From the NCBI GenBank assembly GCA_003104935.1, contig PQAE01000012.1, positions 4,988 to 68,987 on the forward strand: a stretch of DNA of 64,000 bases, in the 5' to 3' direction. Positions 1,956 through 31,294 of this stretch are shown piece by piece. The notes under the pieces were generated by a model. It saw only the letters and a program-made list of their open reading frames with translations, ran no database searches and was not told the origin of the DNA. The position numbers were made by a program, and so were the translations under genes. Every line of letters begins with the position of its first letter. Position 1 is the stretch's first letter. This stretch comes from Parcubacteria group bacterium (lineage in GTDB: Bacteria; Patescibacteriota; Patescibacteriia; UBA1558; GWA2-36-10).

Positions 1956-3644
1956 TTGTTTATTTTTTATCAAACTATGAATAAATACAACCAGCCCGCC
2001 TTGCGAGGGCAGATTTCAAAAAATACTGTACGCGCTACTTTTATATTTATATTTATACTGACTTTTTTGGCGGTGCTGATCGATCTGCCACAATCCTGGG
2101 GCTGGTTTAACAAGTATAAAATTCATTTGGGATTGGATCTGCAGGGCGGTACACATCTGGTATATCAGGCGGACGTTTCCCAGGTGCCGACTTCTGAGCA
2201 GAAAGATAGCGTCGAAGCCCTGCGCAACGTCATCGAAAGACGGGTTAATGTTTATGGCGTGTCTGAACCCATAGTCCAAACCAACTATAGCGGCAATAAC
2301 GCCCGCATCATTGTGGAACTAGCCGGCGTTAAAAATATTAATGATGCCATTGCTATTATTGATAAAACTCCCCAGCTTGATTTCCGACTACAGTCCGCCG
2401 CTCCGGTTAGTGCGACCTCTACATCTACCGATGAAATCAGGAAGAAAGCCGAAGAAGTCCTAAAGCGCGTTTTAGCAGGAGAAGATTTTGCTAAACTGGC
2501 CCAACAATATAGTGAAGATCCCGGATCTAAAGACAAAGGTGGTGATTTACCTTGGGTAACGGAAGGTAAATTCGTACCGGAGTTTGATCAGGCAATTTTT
2601 AAAGATCTCAAACCTGGGCAAATATCCAAGACATTGGTGGAGTCCCAATTTGGCTACCACATAATAAAAAAAATAGAGGAACAGGTAAATGAACAGGGTC
2701 AGATTGAAGTTCATGCCGCCCACATATTATTCAGCAAACCCAATGCCGATTTGACCGATGTTAATTGGATAGCCGCCGGCCTGACCGGACGTCATATCAA
2801 GAAAGCCAGTCTGAACTTTGACCCCAATACTCAACAGCCGCTGGTAATGGTCGAGTTTAATGATGAAGGAAAATCACTTTTTGGAAAAATTACCACAGCT
2901 AACATCGGCAAGCCTGTCGGAATATTTTTAGACAACGAGCTGATTTCCAGCCCGACTGTGCAAGAGGCCATCACCGACGGACGCGCCCAGATTTCGGGAA
3001 AGTTTACAGTCAATGAAGCCAAACAATTAGTTAAGGACCTGAACCTCGGCGCTCTACCGGTGCCGATTCAGCTGATAAGCCAACAAACCGTTGGCGCTAC
3101 TTTAGGTGATATTTACGTCAAAAAATCGCTGATCGCCGGTATTATTGGCTTTTTAGCCGCCGCTTTATTTATGCTTATTTATTATCGCTTACCCGGCTTT
3201 ATTTCAGTCTTGGCTCTGGGTATTTATACTGCTATTGCTTTAGCTATTTTTATTCTGATACCGGTAACTATGACCATGGCGGGAGTGGCCGGCTTTATCC
3301 TTTCTATCGGCATGGCAGTCGATGCTAACGTGCTGATTTTTGAGAGGACAAAGGAAGAATTAATCGAAGGTAAGAGCTTGTATACGGCAGTAGAAAATGG
3401 TTTTCACCGGGCCTGGTCTTCGATTCGTGATTCCAATATTTCTTCCATTATCACCTGTATTATTTTAGCCTGGTTTGGCACCTCGATTATCAAAGGCTTT
3501 GCCATCACCTTGGGCATCGGTATTTTGATCTCCATGTTTTCGGCCATCACCGTTACCCGCACTTTTTTGCGCTTAGTGGTCAGTAGAAAATTAGAATCCA
3601 AGCTGGGTTGGTTTGGAGTGAACACTATTAATAAAGTTGATTAG
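1956..3644 (+). CDS. secD: protein translocase subunit SecD with an inserted parvulin-type (PpiC) PPIase domain
   Basis: SecD N-terminal TM plus P1 head motifs (LGLDLQGGTHLVYQ; C-terminal TM bundle). An internal block GEDFAKLAQQYSEDPGS...GGDL...FGYHIIKK matches parvulin rotamases. Confidence 0.8.
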   Translation: MFIFYQTMNKYNQPALRGQISKNTVRATFIFIFILTFLAVLIDLPQSWGWFNKYKIHLGLDLQGGTHLVYQADVSQVPTSEQKDSVEALRNVIERRVNVYGVSEPIVQTNYSGNNARIIVELAGVKNINDAIAIIDKTPQLDFRLQSAAPVSATSTSTDEIRKKAEEVLKRVLAGEDFAKLAQQYSEDPGSKDKGGDLPWVTEGKFVPEFDQAIFKDLKPGQISKTLVESQFGYHIIKKIEEQVNEQGQIEVHAAHILFSKPNADLTDVNWIAAGLTGRHIKKASLNFDPNTQQPLVMVEFNDEGKSLFGKITTANIGKPVGIFLDNELISSPTVQEAITDGRAQISGKFTVNEAKQLVKDLNLGALPVPIQLISQQTVGATLGDIYVKKSLIAGIIGFLAAALFMLIYYRLPGFISVLALGIYTAIALAIFILIPVTMTMAGVAGFILSIGMAVDANVLIFERTKEELIEGKSLYTAVENGFHRAWSSIRDSNISSIITCIILAWFGTSIIKGFAITLGIGILISMFSAITVTRTFLRLVVSRKLESKLGWFGVNTINKVD

Positions 3645-4560
3645 TTGTATGTATAACATCATAGGAAAAAGAAAATTTTGGTTGTGGTTTTCCGGGATTT
3701 TGATGACCGGATCTATCTTGCTTTTGGCTGTATTTGGCCTGAAGCCGGGGATTGATTTTACCGGCGGCAGTTTGCTTGATGTGAGCTATAGCGTCCAGCG
3801 GCCTTCAGCCGACCAGATTAGCGACGCCTTAGCCGACCAGAAACTGCAGGATTTAAAAATTCAGCCCAGTGGCGAGAAGGATTTTCTGATCAGATTCCAA
3901 AATACCGATGAACCCACACACCAGGCTGTACTGGCAAAGCTGAAAGATATTAAAATCGAGACTGCGCCCGATAATACATTTATTGAAAACCGTTTTGACG
4001 CTATTGGTCCTGTTATCGGGGAGGAATTGCGCAACAAGGCGATTCAGGGAATTGCTTTGGTTTTAATATTTATCGTATTATATATTGCCTGGGCGTTTCG
4101 CAAGGTCTCTCGTCCGGTTGCCTCTTGGAAATACGGTGTGGCGGCTATCATCGCCCTGATTCACGATATTACCATCGTCACGGGGATCTTTGCCCTGTTT
4201 GGAGTTCTATTTGGCACCGAGGTTGACAGTTTATTTGTAACCGCGCTGTTGACTATCCTGGGTTTTTCAGTGCATGACACTATCGTCACCTTTGACCGCA
4301 CCAGAGAAAATCTGCACAAAAGGCAGGACTTGGAGTTTGAAGATGTGCTTAACCTCAGTATTAACGAGACTATGGTGCGATCACTCAATACTTCAATCGT
4401 GACTTTGCTTGCACTGTCGGCCGTATATCTGTTCGGCGGTGAAAGCACTAAAAATTTTACTACGGCTCTGTTATTCGGTATTGTTTTTGGAACTTATTCC
4501 TCAATCTTTGTGGCCTCACCGATACTTTTGCTTTGGAACAGGCAAAAAAGGACTAGCTAG
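3637..4560 (+). CDS. secF: protein translocase subunit SecF
   Basis: Overlaps the secD stop. N-terminal TM, periplasmic loop, C-terminal multi-TM SecF pattern. Confidence 0.8.
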   Translation: MISCMYNIIGKRKFWLWFSGILMTGSILLLAVFGLKPGIDFTGGSLLDVSYSVQRPSADQISDALADQKLQDLKIQPSGEKDFLIRFQNTDEPTHQAVLAKLKDIKIETAPDNTFIENRFDAIGPVIGEELRNKAIQGIALVLIFIVLYIAWAFRKVSRPVASWKYGVAAIIALIHDITIVTGIFALFGVLFGTEVDSLFVTALLTILGFSVHDTIVTFDRTRENLHKRQDLEFEDVLNLSINETMVRSLNTSIVTLLALSAVYLFGGESTKNFTTALLFGIVFGTYSSIFVASPILLLWNRQKRTS

Positions 4561-4657: not shown

Positions 4658-5800
4658 ATGAAGGATTTTAAAAAATGTCAAAAAATAAGGCAAAAAACCA
4701 TGAATTCCATATTAGATAAAGTAATAAGCTCCAAACACCTGTCAAGTCTGGCGGATTTTGACCCGCATCAGACGCTGGCTAGTATTTTGCAGGCGTTATC
4801 AGAACGGGAGCAGGAAATCATCAAGCTTCGCCATGGTCTGGCTAACTACGAAAAAAAGACTTTGGAAGATATCGGCAAAAAGTACAATATTACCAGAGAA
4901 AGAGTACGCCAAATTGAAAATAGCTCGCTAAAAAAAATTACGAAAAATTTTAATCAGAGCTACCTCAAAGAAATTGAATTACTGGCGAATTCTACTTTAG
5001 CGGAACACGGTGGCATGATGTCAGAAGATAACCTAACCGGCGAGCTTTTGGTTATGCCCGGCGAAAGTCAGGAGAACAAAGCGGCCATCCGTTTTATACT
5101 GAATGAATTACTAAGCCATCGCTTCTATCTGGTTAAGGAAGGCAAAGACTATTACAGTTTTTGGAAAACTCCGGAGTCTTCGCTGGACTATTTCCATAAT
5201 ATTATTGATAATATCGTTTCCTTGGTGGACAATCACGGACAGGCGCTACCGGCTGATAACCTCATAGATCAAATAAAGCAGGCCGAGTTTTTTACCACAG
5301 ACGAAGCACTGACGGAAAAAATGATTTTAAACTTCTTGCAAATCACTAAAAAATTAGGAGCTAATCCCTACAATGAGTGGGGTTTGGTAAGCTGGCCGGA
5401 TATCACCCCGCGCCGCATGAACGATAAAATATACCTGGTGCTCAAAAAGGAAAATAAACCTCTACACTTTACGGAGATTGCCGAAAAAATTAATCAGATG
5501 TCATTTGACGAACGCCAAGCTTTCCCGGCCACTATTCATAACGAGCTGATCCTAGATGACAAGTATGTCCTGGTAGGCCGTGGCATCTACGCCCTCAAAG
5601 ATTGGGGTTACAAGCCGGGAGTAGTCAGTGATGTGATATATGACATTCTCAAGGATGCCGGCCGACCACTTTCCAAAAAAGAAATCATAGAGGAAGTAAT
5701 GAAGAAACGCATGATCAAGCAGACCACCATCACTTTGGCTCTGATGAATAGAGATAAATTTAGCCGCGACGAAAAAGGAAGATATTCAATAAAACAGTAA
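4658..5800 (+). CDS. sigma-70 region-4 domain protein with C-terminal HARE-HTH (RNAP delta-like) winged-helix domains
   Basis: N-terminal EQEIIKLRHGL...TLEDIGKKYNITRERVRQIE is a sigma region 4 HTH. The C-terminal repeats resemble HARE-HTH. The likely true start is an internal ATG near 4700. Confidence 0.55.
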   Translation: MKDFKKCQKIRQKTMNSILDKVISSKHLSSLADFDPHQTLASILQALSEREQEIIKLRHGLANYEKKTLEDIGKKYNITRERVRQIENSSLKKITKNFNQSYLKEIELLANSTLAEHGGMMSEDNLTGELLVMPGESQENKAAIRFILNELLSHRFYLVKEGKDYYSFWKTPESSLDYFHNIIDNIVSLVDNHGQALPADNLIDQIKQAEFFTTDEALTEKMILNFLQITKKLGANPYNEWGLVSWPDITPRRMNDKIYLVLKKENKPLHFTEIAEKINQMSFDERQAFPATIHNELILDDKYVLVGRGIYALKDWGYKPGVVSDVIYDILKDAGRPLSKKEIIEEVMKKRMIKQTTITLALMNRDKFSRDEKGRYSIKQ

Positions 5801-5903: not shown

Positions 5904-7409
5904 ATGGAATTTGCCATCGATCTCTCGGTTTTCAGCAATTTTAGCCAACTCGGTCCTCTGAGCATGGTTTGGATTGTTTTTATTAACGGCGGCTGGATCG
6001 TTTTTGTTTGGTTTTTTATCAACGCCTGTTACCTGGTCTGGCTGTTCCGTAAACAAAATCAATGGTTTGCCACTAACGAATATATGATCCTGGCCGTTGA
6101 TATTCCCAAAGATACCGAACAGACGCCGAAGGCGGTGGAGCAATTATTTGCCACTATTTCCGGGGCACACACGCCACTGAGTTACAAAGAGTTATGGTGG
6201 CAAGGCAAGTTTCAGCTGGCTTTTCAGTTTGAGATTATTAGCATTGACGGTTATATCCAATTTTTGATTCGCACACCGAGACAATGGCGAGATCTGGTGG
6301 AAAGTGCCATTTATTCACAATATCCCGACGCGGAGATAACCGAGGTAGAGGATTATGTTAATACAGTGCCCGACAAATATCCCAATGATACCCATAATAT
6401 CTGGGGCACTGAGGTAATCTTGGCCCGCAACGATGTTTTCCCGATAAAAACCTACAAGGAGTTTGAGGACAGTGTTTCCGGTGAGTTTAAGGACCCACTG
6501 GCTTCCTTATTGGAAACCATGAGTAAAATTAAAAAGGGCGAGCAGGTTTGGATTCAGATTATTGTAAAGCCGACAGGTTTTGAGTGGACTGCCAAGAGTT
6601 CCAAGATGGCCTATAAAATTGCGGGCAAGAAAGTACCGGAGAAAAAAAACGGCTGGTCTAGTTGGCTTTCTCCATTCACCGGATTGATATTTTTGACGAC
6701 CGGAGAGGAAATGTTTTTTCAAACCGGAGGAGGTAGTAAACCCAGTGTTCAAAAAGAACCGATGCCGAGCATGATGTTACATCTAACTCCGGGTGAACGA
6801 TTGGGCGTAGAAGCCATAGAACGAAAAGCCAGTAAGATCGGTTTTGAATGTAAAATAAGACTTATCTATATATCGCCTCTGGAGCTTTTTCAGTCTTCGC
6901 GCGTTGTCTCTTCAGTTTTCGGATCGTTGAAACAATTTAATACTCTTGACCTCAATGCTTTTAAACCTGACCCGCGGACGAAAACGCAGATTATGTATTT
7001 TTTTATCAAATCGCGGATCGCTGCGCGTCGTCGCTACATCATGGAAGGGTATAAAAAACGTAGCGGCATGATGGGTCATAGCCCTTTTATATTAAATACG
7101 GAGGAGCTGGCTACGCTTTGGCACTTCCCAGCCAGGGATATTAAGGCGCCGCTTCTGCAAAAAACCGAGTCTAAGAAATCAGAACCGCCTTCGAGTTTGC
7201 CCATTGAATCTATGGAGAAAACCAGACAAACTGACTATAGTGAATTGCGCCGACAATTGCGTGAAAGCACTAAACCCGATCAACCCGCCTTTGATCTGAT
7301 GGACAAGCATTATGAACACAGATTTGCCAAGAAAAACGCATTGTCGACGCAACGGCCCGCCTCAACTACCCACAAAGGCGAACCGCCGGCTAATTTACCT
7401 TTAGGCTAA
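5904..7409 (+). CDS. membrane protein (2 N-terminal TM helices plus a large soluble domain), partner of the downstream T4CP-like ATPase
   Basis: Two hydrophobic helices at the N-terminus. The stop overlaps the start of the next gene (TAATATG), indicating translational coupling. Confidence 0.6.
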   Translation: MEFAIDLSVFSNFSQLGPLSMVWIVFINGGWIVFVWFFINACYLVWLFRKQNQWFATNEYMILAVDIPKDTEQTPKAVEQLFATISGAHTPLSYKELWWQGKFQLAFQFEIISIDGYIQFLIRTPRQWRDLVESAIYSQYPDAEITEVEDYVNTVPDKYPNDTHNIWGTEVILARNDVFPIKTYKEFEDSVSGEFKDPLASLLETMSKIKKGEQVWIQIIVKPTGFEWTAKSSKMAYKIAGKKVPEKKNGWSSWLSPFTGLIFLTTGEEMFFQTGGGSKPSVQKEPMPSMMLHLTPGERLGVEAIERKASKIGFECKIRLIYISPLELFQSSRVVSSVFGSLKQFNTLDLNAFKPDPRTKTQIMYFFIKSRIAARRRYIMEGYKKRSGMMGHSPFILNTEELATLWHFPARDIKAPLLQKTESKKSEPPSSLPIESMEKTRQTDYSELRRQLRESTKPDQPAFDLMDKHYEHRFAKKNALSTQRPASTTHKGEPPANLPLG

Positions 7410-7410
7410 T

Positions 7411-9138
7411 ATGCTAGATAATAAAAAAGTAACCGTTTTTGCCGAAACTAATTATCGGCGCTCAAATGTAAAATTTGGCATCAAAACCGACGACCGACGC
7501 CGGCATATGTATTTTATTGGTAAAACGGGCATGGGTAAATCAACGGTGCTGGAAAATATGATTATTCAGGATATTCAGTCGGGCTTGGGCGTCTGTGTTG
7601 TTGACCCGCACGGTGATTTGGTGGAAAAAGTAATCAGTTTCGTACCTACGCATCGCATTAATGATGTTATTTATTTTAATCCGTCAGATTTAGCCTACCC
7701 TATAGCCTTTAACGTCTTAGAAAGCGTAGATCCGGAACAACGTCACCTGGTTGTTTCCGGCTTAATCGGCGTCTTTAAAAAAATCTGGGCGGATTCCTGG
7801 GGCCCGCGGTTGGAATACGTCCTGCACCATGCGATTTCCGCCTTGCTGGAATACCCCGGATCTACCTTGTTGGGAATCATGCGCATGCTGGTAGACAAAA
7901 CCTTCCGCAAAAAAGTTGTTGAGAAAATATCTGACCCGGTTGTTAAAGCTTTTTGGATTGACGAATATTCCAAATATCCCGACCGTTTCCAATCTGAGGC
8001 CATCGCCCCTATCCAAAATAAAGTCGGCCGTTTTTTGTCATCTGCCCTGATAAGAAATATTCTGGGACAGGTAAAGTCTTCCTTTTCCATGCGGGAGATA
8101 ATGGACCAGCAGAAAATATTGCTACTAAACCTATCCAAAGGTCGCGTCGGAGAAGACAATTCGGCCTTACTCGGCGCCATGATGATCACCAAGATCCAAT
8201 TAGCCGCCATGAGTCGCATTGATACGCCGGAGATAGAACGCAAGGATTTTTATCTCTACGTAGACGAATTTCAAAACTTTGCTACCGAATCTTTCGCCAA
8301 TATTTTATCCGAAGCCAGAAAATACCGATTAAATCTTATTATTGCCCATCAATATATCGAACAGGTGGAGGAAACTATTCAGGCCGCTGTTTTTGGCAAT
8401 GTCGGGACTATAGTGGTCTTTAGAATCGGGGCGGCCGACGCCGAATATCTGGAAAACGAATTTACTCCGACCTTTACACCCGAGGACCTGGTTAACCTAT
8501 CAAAATTTGAGGTTTATATAAAATTAATGATTGATGGTGTGACTTCCGAAGCCTTTTCTGCCCGAACCTTGCCGCCTGTGGAAATGCCGGAAAATGATTC
8601 CGAGGTTCGCGAAAAAATCATCAGTGTTTCACGCGAGCGCTATGCCAAACCCCGAGAAGTTATTGAAGAAAAAATTACCCGCTGGAGCGAGACTCTATTA
8701 GAAGAGTCTGCTCAGGCGCAACGGGAAGTCAGCACGGCCGGGCAGAAAAAACCAACACTAAGTAAGCCAAAAAAGCATGTGCTGACCGAAGTAAATTGCG
8801 ACTTCTGCGGTAAGGAAACGGAAATAAATTTTATCCCTGACCCGACCAAACCTATTTATTGTAAAGAATGTCTTTCCTTGTCCAAGGCTGGGAAGATACC
8901 GGCGCCTTCTAGCATAAAGGTAGTGTCCGGTAACAAACGAGCCAAGGAATCGGAACACTTTATGTCTCTGTCTGAAGCTATGCATATCAGGCCAAATAAC
9001 CATCCGGGGCCGGCAACGGCGGATGCGGACGATGATGATGACACCGACATAGAGCAAACGACTAAATTATCTGTGCCGATAAGCAATCCGCAATCATCTG
9101 AAAAAAGTTTGCCTCGGGGTAAAATCATCAATTTTTAA
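7411..9138 (+). CDS. TraG/TraD/VirD4-family (type IV coupling protein-like) P-loop ATPase with C-terminal zinc ribbon and acidic tail
   Basis: Walker A GKTGMGKST and Walker B LYVDEFQNF are present. RKYRLNLIIAHQ...VFRIG matches the TraG-D C-terminal pattern. CDFCG...CKEC is a Cys4 ribbon. The tail is DADDDDDTD. Confidence 0.7.
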   Translation: MLDNKKVTVFAETNYRRSNVKFGIKTDDRRRHMYFIGKTGMGKSTVLENMIIQDIQSGLGVCVVDPHGDLVEKVISFVPTHRINDVIYFNPSDLAYPIAFNVLESVDPEQRHLVVSGLIGVFKKIWADSWGPRLEYVLHHAISALLEYPGSTLLGIMRMLVDKTFRKKVVEKISDPVVKAFWIDEYSKYPDRFQSEAIAPIQNKVGRFLSSALIRNILGQVKSSFSMREIMDQQKILLLNLSKGRVGEDNSALLGAMMITKIQLAAMSRIDTPEIERKDFYLYVDEFQNFATESFANILSEARKYRLNLIIAHQYIEQVEETIQAAVFGNVGTIVVFRIGAADAEYLENEFTPTFTPEDLVNLSKFEVYIKLMIDGVTSEAFSARTLPPVEMPENDSEVREKIISVSRERYAKPREVIEEKITRWSETLLEESAQAQREVSTAGQKKPTLSKPKKHVLTEVNCDFCGKETEINFIPDPTKPIYCKECLSLSKAGKIPAPSSIKVVSGNKRAKESEHFMSLSEAMHIRPNNHPGPATADADDDDDTDIEQTTKLSVPISNPQSSEKSLPRGKIINF

Positions 9139-12694: not shown

Positions 12695-14440
12695 ATGATG
12701 AAAGCCCAGGAATTAAAGGACAAATATTTAGATTTTTTTGCCTCAAAAAATCATAAAATAATAAGCTCGGCCTCTTTGATACCGGAAAATGACCCTACGG
12801 TTTTATTTACGACCGCCGGTATGCACCCTTTGGTGCCATATTTAATGGGAGAAAAACATCCCGAAGGAAAGCGACTGGCAAATATACAAAAATGCCTGCG
12901 CACTGGTGATATAGACGAGGTGGGGGATGCCATTCACCATACTTTTTTTGAAATGCTTGGTAATTGGTCATTAGGCGATTATTTTAAAAGCGAAACAATA
13001 TCATATTCATGGGAATTGTTAACCAAAATTTATGGGCTTGATAAAAAAAACCTGGCGATTTCTATTTTTGGCGGCAATCAGGCCGTACCCGAATATGACA
13101 AAGAATCGGAGAAATACTGGCTGGATTTGCATATAACTCCCGAGAGAATTTCTAAAGTTACTGACAATTGGTGGGGTCCAGCCGGACAAATCGGTCCCTG
13201 CGGTCCGGACACCGAGATTTTTTATTGGACCGGATCGGGCATTGCTCCGAAAAAATTTGATGAAAGTGACAAAAGCTGGGTGGAGATCTGGAACAATGTT
13301 TTGATGGAATTTAACAAAACTGCAGACGGAATATTTATCCCGTTGAAACAGAAAAATGTGGACACCGGAATGGGTTTGGAAAGAACATTGGCGGTGATCA
13401 ATGGCTTTGACGATAATTATCTGACTGAGCTTTTTCAGCCGATAATTGAAAGGATTGCAGACTTGTCCGGTAAAAAATATTCTAACAACAAAAAAGCCTT
13501 CCGCATTATCGCCGACCATATCCGCAGTGCAGTATTTGTCCTGGGCGACCCTATGGGTATTGCCCCCTCCAATACCGGTCAGGGCTATGTTCTGCGTCGG
13601 CTGATCAGGCGGGCAATTAGATTCGGGAAAGCCCTGGGCCTTGAACACAATTTTTGTACAGCGCTCGCACAGGTCATTATTAATGATCAGTACTATAATC
13701 ACAGCTATCCCGAGATTAAGCGAAATGAAGATTTCATACTGACCGAGTTAGAAAAAGAGGAAATAAAATTTAGACAGACCCTGAAAAAAGGATTAAGGGA
13801 ATTTCAAAAAAAGAAGAGTATTAACGGCGCCGAAGCTTTTCAGTTATTTTCTACCTACGGATTTCCTTTGGAACTAACCGAGGAGCTAGCTAGGGAAAAT
13901 AATTTCCAGATAAATAAAAATGATTTTGCTGCGGAGTTTAAAAAACACCAAGAGCTTTCCCGCACCGCCTCCGCCGGATTATTTAAGGGTGGTTTAGCCG
14001 ACGATTCGGTCATGAGCAAGCGCCATCATACGGCTACCCATCTATTATTACAGGCTTTGCGAATCGTCTTGGGATCGCACGTGGAACAACGCGGAGCCAA
14101 TATCAATACTGAGAGAATACGTTTTGATTTTACCCATTCGGAAAAAATGACTGCCGCACAACTCAAAAAAGTGGAAGATTTGATTAATGAACAGATAGAA
14201 AAAAGACTACCGGTTGGTTTTAAGGAAATGAGCGTTGAGGACGCAAAGCAACGCGGCGCTATGGGCATTTTTACTCAAAAATATGGGGAAAAGGTAAAAG
14301 TGTACACGGTGGGCGATTTCAGCCAAGAAATTTGCGGCGGTCCGCATGTGGATAATACCAAAGAGCTGGGACATTTTAAAATATTGAAAGAAGAATCTAG
14401 CTCGGCCGGTATTAGAAGAATAAAGGCAAAACTAGAATAA
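12695..14440 (+). CDS. alaS: alanine--tRNA ligase (catalytic plus editing domains, no C-Ala domain)
   Basis: N-terminal class II AlaRS motifs (FTTAGMHP, HHTFFEMLGNWSLGDYFK). The editing domain carries HxxxH and CGGPHV. 581 aa. Confidence 0.85.
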   Translation: MMKAQELKDKYLDFFASKNHKIISSASLIPENDPTVLFTTAGMHPLVPYLMGEKHPEGKRLANIQKCLRTGDIDEVGDAIHHTFFEMLGNWSLGDYFKSETISYSWELLTKIYGLDKKNLAISIFGGNQAVPEYDKESEKYWLDLHITPERISKVTDNWWGPAGQIGPCGPDTEIFYWTGSGIAPKKFDESDKSWVEIWNNVLMEFNKTADGIFIPLKQKNVDTGMGLERTLAVINGFDDNYLTELFQPIIERIADLSGKKYSNNKKAFRIIADHIRSAVFVLGDPMGIAPSNTGQGYVLRRLIRRAIRFGKALGLEHNFCTALAQVIINDQYYNHSYPEIKRNEDFILTELEKEEIKFRQTLKKGLREFQKKKSINGAEAFQLFSTYGFPLELTEELARENNFQINKNDFAAEFKKHQELSRTASAGLFKGGLADDSVMSKRHHTATHLLLQALRIVLGSHVEQRGANINTERIRFDFTHSEKMTAAQLKKVEDLINEQIEKRLPVGFKEMSVEDAKQRGAMGIFTQKYGEKVKVYTVGDFSQEICGGPHVDNTKELGHFKILKEESSSAGIRRIKAKLE

Positions 14441-14983: not shown

Positions 14984-17746
14984 ATGAGTTTCTTAGACAA
15001 ATTATTTGGTGACGCCAATAAAAAATATCTCGATAGCCTCAAACCACAAATTGAGGCTATTAATGCTTTAGAAAAGAAATTTGAATCTCTAACTGACGCC
15101 CAGATTAAAGAACGTAGCTTTGATTTAAAAAAACAAGTCGGCGAAGGAAAAAATCTGGATGAAGTATTAGTGCCGGCTTTTGCCTTGGTACGCGAAGCCG
15201 CCAAGCGAACTCTGAGACAGCGCCACTTTGATGTGCAACTCCTAGGAGGCATGGTTTTGCATCGGGGTCAAGTCGCAGAAATGAAAACCGGTGAGGGAAA
15301 GACCTTAACCTCCACCTTACCCATTTATCTTAATGCTTTAGAGAGCAGAGGCGTTCACGTGGTTACTGTCAACGACTATCTGGCCAAACGCGATGCCGTC
15401 TGGATGGGACAGATTTATGGTTTACTAGGTTTGACCGTGGGCACTATCCAGCACGAAGCCTCTTTTTTATACGACAGTGTTAAAGCCGACGCGGAAAAGG
15501 AAAAACTGCGTGACCAGGGCGTATCAGTGGTGATGGACTACTTGACCCCGGTTTCACGCCAGGATGCCTACAAAGCAGACATCACCTACGGCACCAATAA
15601 TGAATTTGGTTTTGATTATCTGCGTGATAACATGGCCCAAGATGTCAGCCAGCAGGTGCAACGCGGCCTGCATTATGCCATTGTGGACGAAGTCGATAGT
15701 ATTTTGATTGACGAAGCTAGAACACCGCTGATTATCTCTGCACCGGCTGACGAATCAACCGACAAATATCGACAATTTTCCATTCTAGTAAATCAGCTGG
15801 AGGAAAACGCCGACTATAACATCGATGAAAAGATGCGCGCCGCCACATTGACGGAAGAGGGTATTAAAAAAATGGAAAAGGCCCTAGGTGTGGATAATAT
15901 TTATGAGAGCCAGGGCATGGACACGGTACATCATCTGGAGCAGGCTCTGCGCGCCAAAACGCTTTATCAACTGGATCGTGATTACGTTGTAAAAGACAAC
16001 GAAGTCGTCATCATCGATGAATTCACCGGACGGATGATGCAAGGCCGTCGCTATAGCGAAGGTCTGCACCAGGCTATAGAGGCCAAAGAAGGTGTGGAGG
16101 TCCAGAGAGAGAGTCAGACTCTAGCCACCGTCACCTTTCAAAATTATTTCCGGATGTACGACAAGTTGTCCGGTATGACCGGTACTGCCGCCACCGAGGC
16201 CGAGGAAATGGCTAAAATATACAATTTGGATGTTACGGTCGTGCCTACTAACCGCCCTTTTATCCGTCTGGATCTCAAAGACCGTATTTATCGCTCTGAG
16301 CGAGGAAAATTTAAGGCCTTGATCAGAGAAATCCAGGCCTGTCACGAAAAAGGCCAACCTGTCTTGGTCGGCACCATTTCTATTGAAAAGAACGAGCTCT
16401 TAAGCAGGATGCTGGAAAAAGCCGGTATTCCCCATAGTCTGCTAAATGCCAAACAGCACGAAAAAGAGGCGCAAATCATCGCCCAAGCCGGTCAAAAAGG
16501 CGCGGTCACTGTAGCCACTAATATGGCCGGGCGTGGCGTGGATATCATATTGGGTGGTTCACCCTTTGAGCAGGCCAAATATGAGGAAATAAAGGCCTTA
16601 GGAGGTCTTTTAGTCATGGGTAGCGAGCGCCACGAGTCCCGCCGTATTGATAACCAATTGCGCGGCCGTTCCGGCCGTCAGGGTGATCCCGGAGCCAGCC
16701 AGTTTTATATTTCCATGGAAGATGATCTGATGCGCATCTTCGGATCGGAGCGGATGAAGGGACTGATGGAAAAGCTGGGTATTGCTGAGGACACGGCTAT
16801 AGAAAATAAGCTGATTTCCAATTCAATAGAATCCGCCCAGAAAAAAGTAGAGGGTCATAATTTTGATATTCGCAAACACTTGGTGGAATATGACGACGTT
16901 ATAAATAAGCACCGCCAGGTGATTTACAAAACTCGCCAGAGAATACTGAAATTTTTTGCCGGCCAGGATACGGAAATCGGGGAAAACATAAAAACCTCCG
17001 CCGACCTGGTATTGGATTACGTTAACCAGGAAATAAACAGCGTTGTTTCTTTTCACACCTTAACCGACAAAAACCACGGCGACTTTAACCCCCGCGAAAT
17101 ACTGGAAACTATTAAAACCATCTTTTCATTGTCCGCCTCGGAAGAAGGAAAATTAACCGAGCTGATAAAAACCAATCAAAAGCAAAATACGCACGGCGAG
17201 AGAACCGGCGTCATAGATTATCTGGAGAAAATAGCACGCGAAAAATACGAACAACTGACAAAAGATATCAATGCCAGCGTGGAATTGACGGACAAGACCT
17301 GGGCGCCGATGCAACTGATAGAGCGTGGTATAGTTTTGCGCAGTATGGATTCCCTCTGGGTAGAGCATCTGACCGCCATGGACAAGCTACGCACCGGCAT
17401 CGGCCTACAGGGTTATGGGCAACGGGATCCGCTGGTAGAATACAAACGTGAGTCTTTCGCGCTATTTAATAATCTTCTGGAGTCTATCCGCAAGCAGATA
17501 GTTTATTCCATATATAAGATCCGTCTAGCGCAAAAAATGACTGCCCCCACAGCAAAGGAACCAGCCAAAAAACTGGCTGAGCAAAAAGCCGGCTACAATC
17601 CTTTTAAAAAAGAAGTGGAAAACAGAGAAGGTCAGGATCAATTAGTTTCCAGTAAGCCTAAAGACGAAGAGGGACATAAGATAGGACGCAATGATTTGTG
17701 TTATTGTGGCAGTGGGAAAAAGTATAAAAAATGCCATGGAGCATAG
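14984..17746 (+). CDS. secA: preprotein translocase ATPase SecA
   Basis: DEAD-like motor motifs and a C-terminal zinc-binding CYCGSGKKYKKCHG. 920 aa. Confidence 0.9.
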   Translation: MSFLDKLFGDANKKYLDSLKPQIEAINALEKKFESLTDAQIKERSFDLKKQVGEGKNLDEVLVPAFALVREAAKRTLRQRHFDVQLLGGMVLHRGQVAEMKTGEGKTLTSTLPIYLNALESRGVHVVTVNDYLAKRDAVWMGQIYGLLGLTVGTIQHEASFLYDSVKADAEKEKLRDQGVSVVMDYLTPVSRQDAYKADITYGTNNEFGFDYLRDNMAQDVSQQVQRGLHYAIVDEVDSILIDEARTPLIISAPADESTDKYRQFSILVNQLEENADYNIDEKMRAATLTEEGIKKMEKALGVDNIYESQGMDTVHHLEQALRAKTLYQLDRDYVVKDNEVVIIDEFTGRMMQGRRYSEGLHQAIEAKEGVEVQRESQTLATVTFQNYFRMYDKLSGMTGTAATEAEEMAKIYNLDVTVVPTNRPFIRLDLKDRIYRSERGKFKALIREIQACHEKGQPVLVGTISIEKNELLSRMLEKAGIPHSLLNAKQHEKEAQIIAQAGQKGAVTVATNMAGRGVDIILGGSPFEQAKYEEIKALGGLLVMGSERHESRRIDNQLRGRSGRQGDPGASQFYISMEDDLMRIFGSERMKGLMEKLGIAEDTAIENKLISNSIESAQKKVEGHNFDIRKHLVEYDDVINKHRQVIYKTRQRILKFFAGQDTEIGENIKTSADLVLDYVNQEINSVVSFHTLTDKNHGDFNPREILETIKTIFSLSASEEGKLTELIKTNQKQNTHGERTGVIDYLEKIAREKYEQLTKDINASVELTDKTWAPMQLIERGIVLRSMDSLWVEHLTAMDKLRTGIGLQGYGQRDPLVEYKRESFALFNNLLESIRKQIVYSIYKIRLAQKMTAPTAKEPAKKLAEQKAGYNPFKKEVENREGQDQLVSSKPKDEEGHKIGRNDLCYCGSGKKYKKCHGA

Positions 17747-21624: not shown

Positions 21625-22722
21625 ATGTTATATAATAAAATCATTAGACCTATCTTGTTCCTGATGGACGCCGAGTTTGTCCATGATCTGGTCAGCTCTA
21701 TTTTGTCGGTGGCGAATAAAAGCCGGATGATCAATAATATAATCTTTATTTTTTTTAATTTTTCTACTCCGAGAATCAAACAAAAGTTGTGCGGACTTTA
21801 TTTTCGGACGCCCATTGGGCTAGCCGGCGGTATGGATAAGAAAGCGGCCGCGCCGCTCCTATGGAGTGCCTTTGATTTTGGCTGGGCCGAGCTCGGTTCC
21901 TTTACCGCCGAACCCTGGGCCGGCAACGCGCGGCCGCGACTGTGGCGCCTGATCAAGGAACAAGGCATTATTGTTTATTCCGGCCTGCCCAATATCGGCG
22001 CCCTGGCTGTTTCAAATAAATTAACCCGAGAAATCAAGCGCTATCCCAGAAGGGGATTATGGGGTATTAGTATCGCCAAGACTCCGCGCGTCCCTCTGGA
22101 ACAGGCGGCCGAGGACTACGCCCGCAGTTTCAATATTTTAGAGCCCCTGGCTAATATCATCACTATTAACCTCAGCTGCCCCAATGTTAGCGGATTTATC
22201 GGCCTGCAGGATCCGCAAAAATTAGAACCAATCTTAAAAAAGATTACCGAGATTAACAAAAATAACAAAATAATATTTCTGAAAATCGGCAATGACTTGG
22301 ACACCAGCCAGTTGGATGATATTATCGCGCTGGTAAAAAAATACAGCATTCACGGCATTATCGCCACTAACCTGACTAAAAAAAGAGAAAAAATATCTCT
22401 GCCTTCAAAATATGCGGACAAACCCGGCGGAATTTCAGGCAAATTGATCAGCGACCGTGCCAATAAAATTATCGCCCATTTGTATCGGCAATCAGAAGGA
22501 AGATATATTGTCGTCGGTTGTGGCGGGGTTTTTACCGGCCAGGATGCTTTTACAAAGATTAAAGCCGGAGCCCAGCTTATCCAATTAGCCACCGGATTTA
22601 TTTTTGGCGGACCGGCCAGTATCAAGAAAATAAACCGCGAGCTTGATGCCGCGCTGAAACAGAATGATTTTGCGCATATTGCGGATGCCGTGGGCAGAGA
22701 AGCTTATAATTATTCGCTATGA
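21625..22722 (+). CDS. pyrD: dihydroorotate dehydrogenase-like (class 2, membrane-associated N-terminus)
   Basis: GLAGGMDK, GLPN.G, ISIAKT and NLSCPN motifs are present. 365 aa. Confidence 0.65.
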   Translation: MLYNKIIRPILFLMDAEFVHDLVSSILSVANKSRMINNIIFIFFNFSTPRIKQKLCGLYFRTPIGLAGGMDKKAAAPLLWSAFDFGWAELGSFTAEPWAGNARPRLWRLIKEQGIIVYSGLPNIGALAVSNKLTREIKRYPRRGLWGISIAKTPRVPLEQAAEDYARSFNILEPLANIITINLSCPNVSGFIGLQDPQKLEPILKKITEINKNNKIIFLKIGNDLDTSQLDDIIALVKKYSIHGIIATNLTKKREKISLPSKYADKPGGISGKLISDRANKIIAHLYRQSEGRYIVVGCGGVFTGQDAFTKIKAGAQLIQLATGFIFGGPASIKKINRELDAALKQNDFAHIADAVGREAYNYSL

Positions 22723-24227
22723 ACCAAAAATACAAAGATTACTATTCCTATCGCCTGCTGGAGATAATACCCGGACTGCTAATCTGGGCTACTTTTGTTG
22801 GTGCCGTGATTATCTCGATTCTTTCACCCATTATCGGCATCTATATTATCATAGCTTTTGATGTTTATTGGGTGCTGCGGGTAACCTATTTGACTATATT
22901 TTTAGTGATGTCTTGGTTTCAATATCAGAAAGCCAGAAGAGTATCCTGGTGGCCAAAACTTCAGGCCGATTTTTCTGGTTGGTCGGAGTACTATCACATT
23001 ATTTTTCTGCCTACGGCCGGAGAACCGCTGAGTATAGTGGAAACCACTTTTAACAATCTGGCCAATATCGTCAATTATGATAAGAAAAAAATGATTGTGG
23101 TCCTGGCCGGAGAGGAGCGCAAGACTGAGCAGTTTGCCGAGGTCACCGAAAACATCTTAGCTAAACATGAGAGTATTTTTTACAAAATACTGATCACTAC
23201 CCATCCTGATAATATTCCCGGTGAAATAGCGGGCAAGGGTTCCAATCTTTTTAATGCCGGGCACGAAGCCAAAAAATATATTGATGCCGAAAAAATTGAT
23301 TATAAAAAAATCATCGTATCTACTTTTGACATTGACACCATCACTCATCCGGATTATTTTGCCTACCTCACTTACAAATTTCTGTCCCATGCTAATCCCT
23401 ATCGCGCTAGCTTTCAGCCCATGGCTTTTTATAATAATAATATCTGGAAATCAGATGTCATCACCCGCATCGTCGCCAATTCTACCACCTTCTGGCTCCT
23501 AACTGATCTGGCCCGTCCGGCACGCTTATTTACTTTTTCTTCGCACAGTATGAGCTGGCAGGCGCTGGTGGATGTGGGTTTTTGGCAAAACAATATCGTT
23601 ACCGAGGATTCCCGCATTTTTTTACAGTGTCTGATCCACTATGACGGCGACTATCAGGTCGAACCCATGCATATACCGGTTTCCATGAACACGGTTTATG
23701 TCGGCACTTTTTGGCGTAGCATGAAAAATCAATACCGCCAAATGCGTCGCTGGGCTTACGGTGTGGAGCATTTTCCGTACATGGTCTGGCATTTTCGACT
23801 AGCAAAAAAAATGCCTCGCACTAAAAAATGGATTTATATCTGGAACCAAACAGAAGGCGTATATTCCTGGGCAACAGCGCCTTTGATCATCCTAATCATG
23901 GGCCAGTTGCCGCTTTATGTGGCGGAAAAGCAACATCTTACCACCGTCCTGACGCAAAACGCCCCGTTGATTATGGAAGCTCTGATGCGCTATGGCATGT
24001 TTGGTTTGCTAATCGTAGCTTTTTTAAGCGTGACGATCTTACCGCCCTTGCCGCCGCAAAAAAATAAATATTACAAATTTTATATTTATCCTTGGATGTT
24101 TGCCCAATGGATTATCTTTCCGGTGACGATGATCATTTTTGGATCTGTTCCGGCGGTTGATGCCCAGACCAGACTGATGTTCGGCAAATATCTCGGTTTT
24201 TGGGTCACAGAAAAAGTCAAAGAATAA
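22719..24227 (+). CDS. membrane-embedded family-2 glycosyltransferase (processive synthase-like, QxxRW motif)
   Basis: The motifs DID and TEDSRIF are present, and QYRQMRRW matches QxxRW. Multiple TM helices at both ends. Confidence 0.5.
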   Translation: MNQKYKDYYSYRLLEIIPGLLIWATFVGAVIISILSPIIGIYIIIAFDVYWVLRVTYLTIFLVMSWFQYQKARRVSWWPKLQADFSGWSEYYHIIFLPTAGEPLSIVETTFNNLANIVNYDKKKMIVVLAGEERKTEQFAEVTENILAKHESIFYKILITTHPDNIPGEIAGKGSNLFNAGHEAKKYIDAEKIDYKKIIVSTFDIDTITHPDYFAYLTYKFLSHANPYRASFQPMAFYNNNIWKSDVITRIVANSTTFWLLTDLARPARLFTFSSHSMSWQALVDVGFWQNNIVTEDSRIFLQCLIHYDGDYQVEPMHIPVSMNTVYVGTFWRSMKNQYRQMRRWAYGVEHFPYMVWHFRLAKKMPRTKKWIYIWNQTEGVYSWATAPLIILIMGQLPLYVAEKQHLTTVLTQNAPLIMEALMRYGMFGLLIVAFLSVTILPPLPPQKNKYYKFYIYPWMFAQWIIFPVTMIIFGSVPAVDAQTRLMFGKYLGFWVTEKVKE

Positions 24228-24248
24228 TTAATAATTTACTGCATAGCT

Positions 24249-25811
24249 ATGAAAAAAATGATTTTTTTATTTTCCGTGTTGCTGGCGGCCGTTTTTATTT
24301 TTCCCTCCGGCAGTCGCGCCCAGGTGACGATCACTGACGGACCCGATGCCATCCAGATTAGAAATCTCTACGCCGGCAATATCGTCGTGCTGGACGACGG
24401 CTATAAAAAGGATTATTACTATATCGAGCCCCTTACCCAGGAAAAATATTATTTCAGCGACGATGTGAGTTTGCTCAAATTGATTCGCGCTTTGGGCCAA
24501 AGCACCAACACTAAGTCGCTGGTTAATCTGCCGCAGTCCAAATCTGACAAAAATGCCAACTATAACGCCGTGCAAAAACTGCGCGGTCGTTTCCTACTAC
24601 AGACAGATAATGACAATCAGGCCTGGTATATCAACCCCTTAGACAACCTGCGTTATAAGATCGACGGCGGAAAAGACGGTCTAAAGATTGTCCGCAACTT
24701 GGCGCTCAATGTTGATAGCACAAAACTAAGTGTTTTTCCCTTGCCGAAAAAAACTAGCTTCCGCAAAAATACCGGCGACGCTGTGGATTTTGGCATGTTT
24801 TGGCAAGTGCAAAATCTTTTGAAAAAAAATTATTATCAGCCCGATAAAGTAAATGATTCGGAACTGTTTTACGGGGCCTTACAGGGAGTAGCGGCCTCAT
24901 TACAGGATCCCTACACTGTTTTTTTTACCCCTCCGGGGAGCAAAAACTTTTTGGATAACATATCCGGAGCTACCGAGGGCATCGGCGCCTATGTGGACGT
25001 AATCAATGGCCGCCTAACTATTATTGCTCCTTTAGAAAATTCACCGGCTCTGGCGGCTGGACTATTACCTAACGACCAGGTACTGACGGTCGACGATGTG
25101 GATATTAGCGGTTGGCTACTGGATAATGCCGTAGGTTTGATCAAAGGCCAGTCCGGCACCGCGGTTAAGCTGAAGATTTATCGACCAGCCAGTGACCGCA
25201 CTTTTGATGTTTCTATTGTTCGGGCCAAAATAGTCATTCCGACGATTGAAGCCAAAACCCTAAACAATAATCTGGCTTATATCAAAATTTCATCGTTTAG
25301 CCAGGATCTACCGACCTTGTTTAACCAGGCGCGGAACAAGGTCATAGGTAATGCTACCAGGGGAGTGATCATAGATTTGCGCAATAACCCCGGCGGCTAC
25401 ACCGACGCGGCCCAGATTCTAGCCGAGTCCTGGCTACCCGAAGGCGATGTTATCTTTCGCGAAAATTATAGCGATCATTCCCAAACCTATCAGGCCATCA
25501 GCAATAATGATATCAATCTGCCCACGGTCATATTGATTAACTCCGGAAGTGCCTCGGCTGCGGAGATTTTTACCTTGGCACTGAGCAAAAACGGTTTGGC
25601 ACAAACCGTCGGCGAGACCTCATTTGGTAAGGGCACCGGCCAACAGCTGGCGAACTTTCCGGACGGCTCAGCTTTAAAATATACGGTTTTTGAGTGGTTT
25701 GGCCCGCAAGATAGTTTTATTGAAGGTCAAGGTATTAAGCCGGATTATGCTGTGCAGAATACTCCGGGCAGTGACCTACAGTTAGAAAAAGCTTTGACTT
25801 TGCTAAGATAA
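24249..25811 (+). CDS. secreted C-terminal processing (S41) peptidase with PDZ domain
   Basis: Signal peptide, PDZ region, S41 motifs GSASAAEIF and GKGTGQ. Confidence 0.75.
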   Translation: MKKMIFLFSVLLAAVFIFPSGSRAQVTITDGPDAIQIRNLYAGNIVVLDDGYKKDYYYIEPLTQEKYYFSDDVSLLKLIRALGQSTNTKSLVNLPQSKSDKNANYNAVQKLRGRFLLQTDNDNQAWYINPLDNLRYKIDGGKDGLKIVRNLALNVDSTKLSVFPLPKKTSFRKNTGDAVDFGMFWQVQNLLKKNYYQPDKVNDSELFYGALQGVAASLQDPYTVFFTPPGSKNFLDNISGATEGIGAYVDVINGRLTIIAPLENSPALAAGLLPNDQVLTVDDVDISGWLLDNAVGLIKGQSGTAVKLKIYRPASDRTFDVSIVRAKIVIPTIEAKTLNNNLAYIKISSFSQDLPTLFNQARNKVIGNATRGVIIDLRNNPGGYTDAAQILAESWLPEGDVIFRENYSDHSQTYQAISNNDINLPTVILINSGSASAAEIFTLALSKNGLAQTVGETSFGKGTGQQLANFPDGSALKYTVFEWFGPQDSFIEGQGIKPDYAVQNTPGSDLQLEKALTLLR

Positions 25812-25861
25812 AATGGTCAAAAAAACCTCTCCCTGCCGGGAGAGGTTTTAACTTTCCTTAT

Positions 25862-26779
25862 TTAATTAAGATATTTTTCGTAACCGCGGATAAATTCGCC
25901 CGCCATCATGATTCTCTTGCCTTCAGGTTGGATTTCCAGGATTTCTAAACTGCCGTCATCAGTACCGACAAAAAAATGATTATTTTCTACAGCAAACTGC
26001 GCCGGCCTAAGCTCTTGATCTGATAATTTGGTCTTAATGAGCTTAATCTTTATACCGTTGAGATCGGTATAAACTGATGGCCAAGGATTGTAGGCCCGGA
26101 CTTTATTATGAATTTTTAGGGCGCTATCTTGCCAGGAAATATCGCCGTCTTCCTTTTTAATCAATTTACAGAAAGTAGCCGCACGATCATCTTGCGATTT
26201 GCCAGCCAGACCACCATCCAAATAGCTGATGATACTGCCGGCTAAAATTTTACCTCCGACGATGGCCAGCTTGGCGGAGAGAGATTCAAAATTATCTTCC
26301 GAACTGATATCTATATTTTGCTGAGCTAAAATAGGACCATGATCCATATGATCATCTAATTGGATTAGGGTCACCGCAGTTTCCTTTAAACCATCGGCTA
26401 AAGCGGTCTGAATAGGGGAGGGGCCGCGTAAAACTGGCAAAGCACTGGGATGAATATTAATGGCGCATAACTCCGATAAATCCAAAATCTCCTGTGGAAT
26501 AATCTTGCCATAAGCCACAATCACAAAAGTAGCCGGTAAATATTTTTTCAGCGCAAACACAAAATCTTCATCCAATCTTTCCGGGCAGAGAATCGGTAAA
26601 GAATAAATCGAGGCGGTTTTTTTTACCGGCGAACTACTTATTTTTTGCCGGCGTCCGGAAGGACGATCCGGCTGCGTAACCACAGCTTTTACCAAACCGA
26701 GAGCTAAGAGTATACGAAAGCTGGGAATCGCGAAGTCGGGCGTGCCCCAAAAAATTATTTTCTTATTGCTGACTGCCAT
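25862..26779 (-). CDS. fmt: methionyl-tRNA formyltransferase
   Basis: IIFWGTPDFA N-terminus. Formyltransferase fold plus C-terminal domain. Confidence 0.85.
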   Translation of the reverse strand: MAVSNKKIIFWGTPDFAIPSFRILLALGLVKAVVTQPDRPSGRRQKISSSPVKKTASIYSLPILCPERLDEDFVFALKKYLPATFVIVAYGKIIPQEILDLSELCAINIHPSALPVLRGPSPIQTALADGLKETAVTLIQLDDHMDHGPILAQQNIDISSEDNFESLSAKLAIVGGKILAGSIISYLDGGLAGKSQDDRAATFCKLIKKEDGDISWQDSALKIHNKVRAYNPWPSVYTDLNGIKIKLIKTKLSDQELRPAQFAVENNHFFVGTDDGSLEILEIQPEGKRIMMAGEFIRGYEKYLN

Positions 26780-27257
26780 TTCTTATTTTATCTAAAATAT
26801 CCCGCCCTTGCGTTATTTTTTCCGCCCGATCGATAAATAATACTCCCTGAAGATGGTCAATCTCATGTTGTAACACTACCGCCAACATGCCTTTTATTTT
26901 TTCACTGCATCTCTGACCGTCCAGATTCTGGTAATTCAAGTGTATTTTTTTTGGTCTTTTTACTAAACCGAAAATGCCTGGCAAGGACAAACAGCCCTCA
27001 TCGGTGGTAGTCAGGTCAGTAGAGCTAAAGGTGATCTCTGGATTAACATAGGCCTGATATGATTTTTTATCCGCTTTACCTACCACCACTAATCTAATGG
27101 TTTTACTAACCTGAGGAGCAGCTAGGCCGATACCATCATCAGCATACATGATTTCAGCCATATCGCTAGCTAATTTCCTTAATTCAGCATCAAACCGACT
27201 GACTTCATCAGCCTTTTTTCTCAATATTTCCTGAGGATATTTAGCAATTGTCAGCAT
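26763..27257 (-). CDS. def: peptide deformylase
   Basis: GIGLAAPQV, CLSLPG and HEIDHLQG motifs. Confidence 0.85.
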   Translation of the reverse strand: MLTIAKYPQEILRKKADEVSRFDAELRKLASDMAEIMYADDGIGLAAPQVSKTIRLVVVGKADKKSYQAYVNPEITFSSTDLTTTDEGCLSLPGIFGLVKRPKKIHLNYQNLDGQRCSEKIKGMLAVVLQHEIDHLQGVLFIDRAEKITQGRDILDKIRNGSQQ

Positions 27258-27330
27258 AATATTTATACTATAACAATTTGTGTATAATTTGTCAATAATT
27301 ATATCCCGTTTTTTTTGCTATAATACAAAC

Positions 27331-27594: not shown

Positions 27595-27634
27595 TTAAAC
27601 AAAAAAAACATCCCACCCGACAAGATGTTTTTTA

Positions 27635-29892: not shown

Positions 29893-30014
29893 AAGAGCAA
29901 GGGATTTATTTATTATTTTTCCACTATATTATAGCATAAATTTGATAAATAACAAAATTTTCCTAAATTTAAATAAAAATTGATTTTAGTGCCGAAATAA
30001 GCTAAAATCAAGAC

Positions 30015-31291: not shown

Positions 31292-31294
31292 CAT

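Follow-up and report, generated by a model that had tools for sequence, protein, structure and literature searches.

In a stretch of 64,000 nucleotides from a Parcubacteria group bacterium (contig PQAE01000012.1, positions 4,988 to 68,987 of the forward strand; in its full length hereafter called the window), the open reading frame (ORF) at 1956-3644 encodes the protein translocation subunit SecD, with a complete parvulin-type peptidyl-prolyl isomerase (PPIase) domain inserted into its extracytoplasmic part. The best explanation of all observations taken together, to which we assign a probability of about 0.78, is a SecD with an inserted, circularly permuted, and catalytically conserved parvulin, which would serve as a built-in PrsA-like foldase at the exit of the Sec translocon. 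Both component families are well known; their fusion is conserved and relevant to the coupling of translocation and folding, and overturns nothing. In the open-access literature searched, no paper on a fusion of SecD with a parvulin, or on a parvulin in circularly permuted form, was found; the domain seems to be the first natural circular permutant described for the parvulin fold.

Insertion, permuted order, and active site of the parvulin domain

The ORF encodes a genuine SecD. Its match to TIGR01129, the SecD equivalog within the SecDF branch of the resistance-nodulation-division (RND) superfamily, reaches 388.5 bits (cut-off 244.4) over model positions 1-397. The Pfam domains follow each other in the order Sec_GG (PF07549, residues 55-73), SecD_1st (PF21760, 87-146), Rotamase_3/Rotamase (152-241), SecDF_P1_head (PF22599, 275-369), and SecD_SecF_C (PF02355, 371-540), with all residue numbers counted from nt 1956 (TTG). 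This order and the helices of the AlphaFold2 (AF2) model reveal the SecD architecture, comprising a first transmembrane helix (TM1), a large extracytoplasmic P1 domain built from base and head, TM2-6, and an adjoining SecF, the probable start of which (ATG 3649) lies 4 nt past the secD stop. Residue D456 (GMAVDANV), invariant in 54 homologues, aligns with D340 of Thermus thermophilus SecDF (GAAVDGNV), the conserved TM4 Asp of the proton pathway (Tsukazaki et al. 2011). As judged from the sequence, the motor part looks intact. A public protein annotated as 'protein translocase subunit SecD [Parcubacteria group bacterium]' (P0001) is 100% identical and has 555 aa, for which reason ATG 1977 is the probable start of secD.

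Between base and head, residues 152-241 match Rotamase_3 (PF13616; E 3.7e-27, 95.6 bits, cut-off 22.5) as well as Rotamase (PF00639; E 1.6e-23, 84 bits, cut-off 21.7), so that the objection of a weak local similarity fails. A first-pass annotation of the window had noticed a parvulin signature inside P1 of this SecD, which is borne out by Pfam, TIGR01129, and the alignment with SecDF; all motifs quoted there are present (GEDFAKLAQQYSEDPGS at 175-191, GGDL at 195-198, FVPEFD at 206-211, QFGYHIIK at 231-238, and VHAAHILF at 252-259). The placement in the P1 region likewise stands and can be refined to the connector leading from base to head, not within the head itself. In comparison with T. thermophilus SecDF, LDFRLQS (141-147) corresponds to LEFRIVKE at ~113-120, and the match picks up again at residue 276 of the query, equivalent to Thermus position 160. 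The short, uninterrupted base-to-head connector of SecD, ~40 residues in Thermus, is thereby replaced by one of ~129 residues, of which the insert proper makes up about residues 148-268 (~120 residues). The first-pass statement that this is not the standard SecD architecture was hence correct, yet the protein is one of a broad family within the candidate phyla radiation (CPR) exhibiting several insert architectures. Insert-less CPR SecDs possess low-complexity, hypervariable connectors of mostly 10-49 aa, and no VHAxHIL-type strand was found in the connectors of insert-less SecD relatives. The lead-in W/F-x-x-T-x-LTG (here NWIAAG-LTG) is present in insert-less SecDs as well and is thus native to SecD. 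Within SecD, just linkers of 8-9 residues flank the parvulin, around which no Pfam match to an N/C-terminal trigger-factor/SurA-like chaperone domain was obtained; other parvulin genes are absent from the 64-kb window.

The Pfam matches begin at profile position 9 of 97 (PF00639) and 29 of 116 (PF13616, covering 29-114), which means that the N-terminal strand β1 is missing ahead of the parvulin block. Instead of the canonical order β1-α1-α2-α3-β2-α4-β3-β4, a β1-type strand (β1') comes after β4. When residues 245-262 (NEQGQIEVHAAHILFSKP) were placed ahead of the block and the profiles rescored, the PF00639 match widened to profile positions 1-96 and that of PF13616 to 14-114 with a gain of 6 to 8 bits, compared with 0.8 bits for the same residues reversed. 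Over the 54 homologues, H256 and I257 of the trailing strand are conserved without exception, with L258 and E251 nearly invariant; the core residues D188, G196, and H235 are invariant as well. Among single-core SecDs with the core directly following the base strand (n=143), none carries β1 ahead of the core and 135 carry a His-containing β1 after it, the His-to-His spacing being 20-21 in 129 of the single-core relatives. Three single-insert SecDs (P0127, P0134, and P0137) keep VRA[RS]HIL at a spacing of 52-66, owing to a low-complexity, acidic/Asn-rich linker of 45-55 residues between β4 and β1'; the β4-β1' hairpin loop thus tolerates insertions of its own. Tandem parvulins that occur as free-standing proteins and were obtained in the same search begin with β1 and end on β4, i.e., they display the canonical, opposite phase.

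Mapping of the active site was performed by aligning the re-permuted unit with Par10 and Pin1 (sequences checked against 1JNS and 1PIN). Residues H59, C113, S111, T152, H157, L122, M130, and F134 of Pin1 correspond to H256, D188, S186, S230, H235, L198, F206, and F210 of SecD, so that both the active site and the pocket of a parvulin are represented; S186, L198, and F210 are nearly invariant among the homologues. The Pin1 phosphate loop is absent, which assigns the domain to the Par10/PrsA type. Since the equivalent of H59 is contributed solely by the trailing strand (H256), the dual-histidine site is complete only if this strand belongs to the parvulin domain. Conservation of every catalytic residue favors real isomerase activity, and the SecD parvulin is apparently an active prolyl isomerase.

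Structure prediction of residues 152-266 alone yielded one compact domain with a predicted local distance difference test score (pLDDT) of 94.8 and a predicted template modeling score (pTM) of 0.87, the trailing strand reaching a pLDDT of ~98. According to this model and the Foldseek search performed with it, the predicted fold is that of a complete, compact parvulin consisting of a four-stranded sheet and helices. In the full-length model, the insert (pLDDT 87-92) comprises α1 (155-173), α2 (178-185), β2 bridges at 197 and 201, α4 (208-217), and β4 (233-244) with a hairpin into the strand 250-260, while confidence is low for the linkers 150-154 and 261-270. The canonical PrsA structure 6XD8 aligned with the domain model over the core only (77 columns, root-mean-square deviation (rmsd) 1.4 Å), and PrsA and other matches extending beyond β4 resulted in rmsd values of 9-13 Å. 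The structures 8HM3/8HM4 matched 107-111 of the 115 columns at an rmsd of 2.2-2.5 Å and TMq 0.77-0.80, and therefore include the trailing strand in sequential order. A search with the full-length model returned SecDF/RND matches only and was uninformative on the insert.

Thus, six lines of evidence (profile, conservation, active site, AF2, Foldseek, and family counts) agree in supporting the SecD parvulin as a circular permutant. The first-pass annotation had suggested such a permutation from the β1-type segment behind the block, and the re-permuted profile, the invariant His, the confidently predicted hairpin, and the strand order in the relatives all speak for it.

Distribution and probable origin of the fusion

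Every one of the 120 best homologues, which are 55-100% identical and stem from many independent assemblies, combines SecD with Rotamase Pfam domains; they originate from metagenome-assembled genomes (MAGs) of Komeilibacteria, Nomurabacteria, Parcubacteria, and the 'Patescibacteria group'. An exhaustive family search with residues 87-370 as query returned 212 clusters (50% identity) at E <= 1e-30, the best 150 of which were classified. As the ranking of the clusters is biased by the query, the class counts are not frequencies among CPR SecDs. With this reservation, the SecD-parvulin architecture recurs in 99 of the best 150 clusters and in >140 independent sequences. Class A, to which the present SecD belongs, accounts for 30 clusters, class B with two recognizable cores for 16, class B' with a ~120-residue unrecognized segment followed by β1 and core for 28, and class C with inserts of 160-350 residues for 13. 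In addition, there are 12 clusters of N-terminally truncated fragments with core and head, 44 of SecDs that lack a parvulin, and 6 of parvulin-only proteins; SecDF fusions were counted in 13 of the 150. One class-C member, the sole representative outside class A to which the cluster look-up assigned a taxon name, derives from Candidatus Peribacterales (Peregrinibacteriota), thus the insertion also occurs beyond the Parcubacteria group. Altogether, the architecture is common in Patescibacteria/CPR, with two-core and larger-insert variants.

The two-core SecDs (n=19) were compared in terms of presence or absence of the His residues only, given that hmmalign with a model of the 15-residue strand produced ragged alignments. 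The β4 His is present in core 1 of none of the 19 and in core 2 of 18, whereas the strand between the cores carries a His in 15 and the trailing strand in five. This pattern is only suggestive, yet it agrees better with a nested arrangement, in which the β4-β1' loop of a degenerate permuted parvulin houses an active canonical one, than with a sequential one. Many CPR SecDs have two cores or inserts of 200-350 residues at the same connector (P0124, P0129, P0139, P0166, P0168, P0189, and locus L036 at 2431-4551), and some of these relatives are SecDF fusions of >1000 aa. The 234-residue connector of P0238 looks like two fully degenerate parvulins.

A pattern scan of contigs recovered SecD-parvulin genes at 6 of 80 loci, being dominated by the generic QFGYH parvulin pattern and thus a poor taxonomic survey. 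Two of the loci with a SecD carrying parvulin insert(s) are labelled as MAGs of other taxa, namely Lysobacteraceae (L003, JAACEG010000012.1) and Gammaproteobacteria (L060). The former is probably a mis-binned CPR contig because its 29.8% GC is implausible for Lysobacteraceae; the latter has 46.8% GC.

With respect to origin, the entire parvulin unit aligns collinearly with residues 164-280 of Escherichia coli SurA, i.e., the core of the parvulin domain P1, the linker, and β1 of the parvulin domain P2 (TEVHARHILLKPSPIMTD vs IEVHAAHILFSKPNADLTD). The unit can hence be regarded as a slice of a SurA-type tandem, and a tandem duplication followed by truncation of the tandem is its probable evolutionary route. 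The 'second partial repeat', which the first-pass annotation had offered as an alternative to permutation, thereby survives as the probable source of the permutant and does not compete with it as a description of the present structure.

Proposed role at the Sec exit and alternative explanations

In the explanation favored here, a parvulin PPIase of ~120 residues has been spliced into the normally short, hypervariable connector between base and head of P1. Its chain enters at α1 and runs to β4, from where a short hairpin brings in β1', normally the N-terminal strand, to complete the four-stranded sheet and to provide the second active-site His. Start of α1 and end of β1' both correspond to ends of the canonical β1-α1 loop; consequently, the new termini should be close together, rendering the permuted domain suited to splicing into a loop. 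The two flexible linkers tether the parvulin beside the P1 head, and since P1 is extracytoplasmic, located between TM1 and TM2, the domain is turned toward the cell envelope. In the prevailing view, SecDF uses its P1 head to capture the chain that emerges and pulls it, driven by the proton-motive force. According to the proposed mechanism, while SecDF grips and pulls the unfolded chain leaving SecYEG, the tethered parvulin would bind this chain and catalyze Xaa-Pro isomerization on it. This would couple translocation to folding as with PrsA in Gram-positives and with the PrsA-like dome of Mycoplasma, but in a single polypeptide.

Current work on PpiD/YfgM, SurA and the holotranslocon, and the Mycoplasma dome asks whether, and in what way, extracytoplasmic folding factors are physically coupled to the Sec translocon. 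AlphaFold models together with electron microscopy placed the parvulin domains of SurA on the P1 head of SecDF (Troman et al. 2023, PMC9987972), and PpiD/YfgM associates with SecYEG (PMC9643414). In Mycoplasma pneumoniae, PrsA-like lipoproteins build a dome together with SecDF-SecYEG-SecA; one of them, Mdp444, is an active PPIase and cross-links to SecD (10.1101/2025.04.25.650208; 10.1101/2024.09.05.611430). By analogy to these three systems, each independently linking parvulins to the Sec exit, the insert is most likely a foldase or holdase of the PrsA kind, tethered in place and engaging chains during their extraction by SecDF. The Rosetta-stone type of link between SecDF and parvulin chaperones, which the first-pass annotation had drawn from the fusion, is consistent with the contact of SurA with the P1 head (PMC9987972) and that of Mdp444 with SecDF (10.1101/2025.04.25.650208). 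That the domain acts as an enzyme, has substrates handed over to it, and takes the place of a free PrsA is inferred.

Some points weigh against this explanation. The profile gain upon re-permutation is modest because the β1' strand is short, and the position of β1' in the canonical β1 slot is read from DSSP, confidence scores, and Foldseek statistics, not from a permutation-aware superposition. AF2 modeling, proposed in the first-pass annotation for judging the completeness of the fold and its location, delivered a complete fold, but the full-length model, with its pTM of 0.48, does not fix where the parvulin sits with respect to the P1 head. In 8 of the 143 single-insert relatives, the β1' His is lost, thus catalysis is not retained in all of them. 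Moreover, some similar-looking parvulin domains, e.g., PpiD and the P1 parvulin of SurA, are inactive.

The latter two points likewise speak for a domain that is folded and permuted but no enzyme, comparable to PpiD and SurA P1, and instead a holdase, a substrate-binding surface, or a mechanical modulator of the swing of the P1 head. It is established that Sec-associated parvulin chaperones such as PpiD and SurA work largely without PPIase activity (for context, see PMC9643414); clearly degenerate cores occur in the two-core and larger-insert relatives, and the insertion is located at the hinge of the moving P1 head. The whole catalytic set is retained here and in 135 of the 143 relatives, though, which would not be expected of a domain with a structural task only, and we consider a non-enzymatic role unlikely. 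Far less probable is that VHAAHILF plays no structural part, being either a linker or the vestige of another parvulin repeat, which would leave an incomplete core devoid of its central strand. The collinearity of the insert with core, linker, and following β1 in SurA is what a cut tandem would be expected to show; against this, strand and His are invariant and kept even across linkers of 45-55 residues, AF2 packs the strand at high confidence into one compact domain, and a parvulin without β1 would lose the central strand of its sheet along with one catalytic His. Slimmest of all is the chance that the strand is a native SecD P1 element resembling parvulin β1, in line with the native lead-in just downstream, or that the arrangement is an assembly or frameshift chimera, the former being ruled out by insert-less SecDs with connectors down to 10 aa and no VHAxHIL-type strand, the latter by the continuous ORF and its recurrence in >140 sequences.

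Returning to the inserted, permuted, and catalytically conserved parvulin, a broader interpretation can be put forward tentatively, which we regard as somewhat less probable than an even chance. It describes a recurrent, loop-insertable permuted module that might give rise to (i) a covalent translocation-folding machine standing in for free PrsA/SurA in many CPR lineages, (ii) the parvulin-in-parvulin nesting in two-core SecDs, and (iii) an as yet unrecognized strand-exchanged tandem in 8HM4, where the His-bearing strand behind core 1 would complete the active core. If true, (i) would be a natural proof that the P1 head of SecDF passes substrates to parvulin foldases. The widespread fusion with a parvulin that is catalytically intact by sequence, at the hinge of the substrate-binding arm of SecD, provides independent evolutionary evidence for such a coupling, and possibly reflects a chaperone economy in bacteria with very small genomes. 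The experimental handle is simple, comprising one gene and either point mutants of D188, H235, and H256 or a deletion of the insert. For annotation pipelines, the consequence is that these proteins are named only 'SecD' with the foldase hidden, and domain-boundary tools report an N-terminally truncated Rotamase.

Features of the locus and comparison with known systems

Table 1. Features of secD and secF by nucleotide position in the window.
Feature	Position	Strand	Details
secD ORF	1956-3644	+	562 aa from TTG 1956; probable start ATG 1977 (555 aa); stop TAG 3642-3644
TM1	2019-2084	+	residues 22-43; AF2 helix; aligns with N-terminal TM of T. thermophilus SecDF
P1 base, N-terminal part	2214-2393	+	residues 87-146; last strand LDFRLQ; PF21760 E 9.4e-16
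N-side flexible linker SAAPVSAT	2394-2417	+	residues 147-154; pLDDT <50 at 150-154; low complexity, variable among relatives
Parvulin core α1-α2-α3-β2-α4-β3-β4	2418-2687	+	residues 155-244; S186, D188 (nt 2517-2519), S230, H235 (nt 2658-2660); pLDDT 97-98
β4-β1' hairpin loop NEQGQ	2688-2702	+	residues 245-249; DSSP on AF2 models
Permuted parvulin strand β1' IEVHAAHILFS	2703-2735	+	residues 250-260; bears second active-site His, H256 (nt 2721-2723)
C-side linker KPNADLTDV	2736-2762	+	residues 261-269; pLDDT ~59 in full-length AF2 model
Native SecD lead-in (NWIAAG-LTG) and P1 head subdomain	2763-3065	+	residues 270-370; PF22599 E 4.3e-30
TM2-TM6 of SecD	3066-3590	+	residues 371-545; PF02355; contains D456 (nt 3321-3323)
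secF, separate gene	3637-4560	+	TIGR00966 287 bits vs cut-off 160; PF02355 E 9.3e-57; probable start ATG 3649

Directly downstream of secF (4658-5800, +), a 380-aa protein contains both Sigma-70 region 4 (44-94) and a HARE-HTH domain (257-310), which are not usually paired in a sigma-like factor. It is followed at 5904-9138 (+) by a 501-aa protein without Pfam match and a 575-aa TrwB/VirD4-like coupling ATPase with a C-terminal treble-clef zinc finger (PF23477), a pair possibly related to type IV secretion or DNA uptake. The alanyl-tRNA synthetase ORF at 12695-14440 (+; 581 aa, catalytic domain and tRNA_SAD) appears to lack the usual C-terminal part of the bacterial enzyme. On the same strand, ~11 kb downstream of secDF, secA is encoded at 14984-17746 (+; 920 aa with SEC-C motif). 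The other genes are of the housekeeping kind, coding for Ddl, Mur ligase, MnmA, GluRS, an Asp/Lys/Asn-type class II aminoacyl-tRNA synthetase, Fmt, a PDZ-containing S41 protease, an M23 peptidase, a PGA_cap protein, and a Wzy_C ligase-like protein; ARAGORN found no tRNA or tmRNA genes in the 64-kb window. Nearly all genes at 204-25811 are oriented in plus and nearly all at 35699-63999 in minus direction, and the GC skew turns from positive to negative with a peak of the cumulative skew near 21-22 kb. The switch of orientation and skew at ~22000-36000 is compatible with a replication terminus region.

In terms of sequence and fold, canonical SecD/SecDF proteins are the best match of this SecD (T. 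thermophilus 3AQP/5YHF; Deinococcus radiodurans 5XAM/5XAN), sharing TM1, P1 base and head, TM2-6, GG motif, TM4 Asp, and the SecF partner. The difference resides in the connector, which is short there and a ~129-aa segment with a whole parvulin domain here. PrsA, the lipoprotein of Bacillus, Listeria, and Staphylococcus (1ZK6, 4WO7, 6VJ6, 6XD8), resembles the insert in being non-phospho-specific with an Asp at the position of Pin1 C113 and in the pattern SEDxGS…GGDLG…FGYHIIK, with a core identity of ~50% to 6XD8. It is likewise extracytoplasmic and membrane-tethered and acts on Sec substrates. In contrast to the SecD parvulin, that of PrsA has β1-first order and is embedded within an N/C chaperone domain, whereas here this domain is missing, SecD is the anchor, and β1 comes after β4.

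E. coli SurA (1M5Y) provides with its P2 domain the best sequence match of the core and, at its P1-to-P2 junction, EVHARHILL as counterpart of EVHAAHILF in SecD; the fusion moreover sets the parvulin beside the P1 head of SecD, a contact predicted for SurA (PMC9987972). Different from the covalent arrangement, SurA is soluble in the periplasm, comprises two canonical parvulins and an N/C chaperone module, and associates non-covalently with SecDF. Among solved structures, only that of the SurA-like PPIase of Bacteroides fragilis, a BfUbb target (8HM3/8HM4), aligns in sequential order with the entire unit, trailing strand included. The sequence of this PPIase (8HM4, recovered with a Bacteroidota-like probe) is organized into N-domain, VEVQIITQ, core 1 (SEDRGSAIKGGETGF…EYGFH242IIQL), a 7-residue turn, INTRH258ILLKP, and a degenerate core 2. 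The β1-like strand VEVQIITQ ahead of the active-looking core 1 is devoid of His, and the strand after core 1 has one. Based on the Foldseek statistics, this His-bearing strand appears to fill the β1 slot of core 1 (region ~150-265), and the tandem may hence be strand-exchanged or nested instead of two successive beads. Unlike the SecD insert, the B. fragilis protein is a soluble tandem-parvulin chaperone whose core 1 is preceded by an extra strand and whose second core is degenerate.

The dome of M. pneumoniae (Mdp436/444/489 with SecDF-SecYEG-SecA) shares with the present system a genome-reduced host without outer membrane and the coupling of the Sec exit to PrsA-like parvulin foldases. There, separate large lipoproteins form a chamber, whereas here one small parvulin is covalently integrated within SecD.

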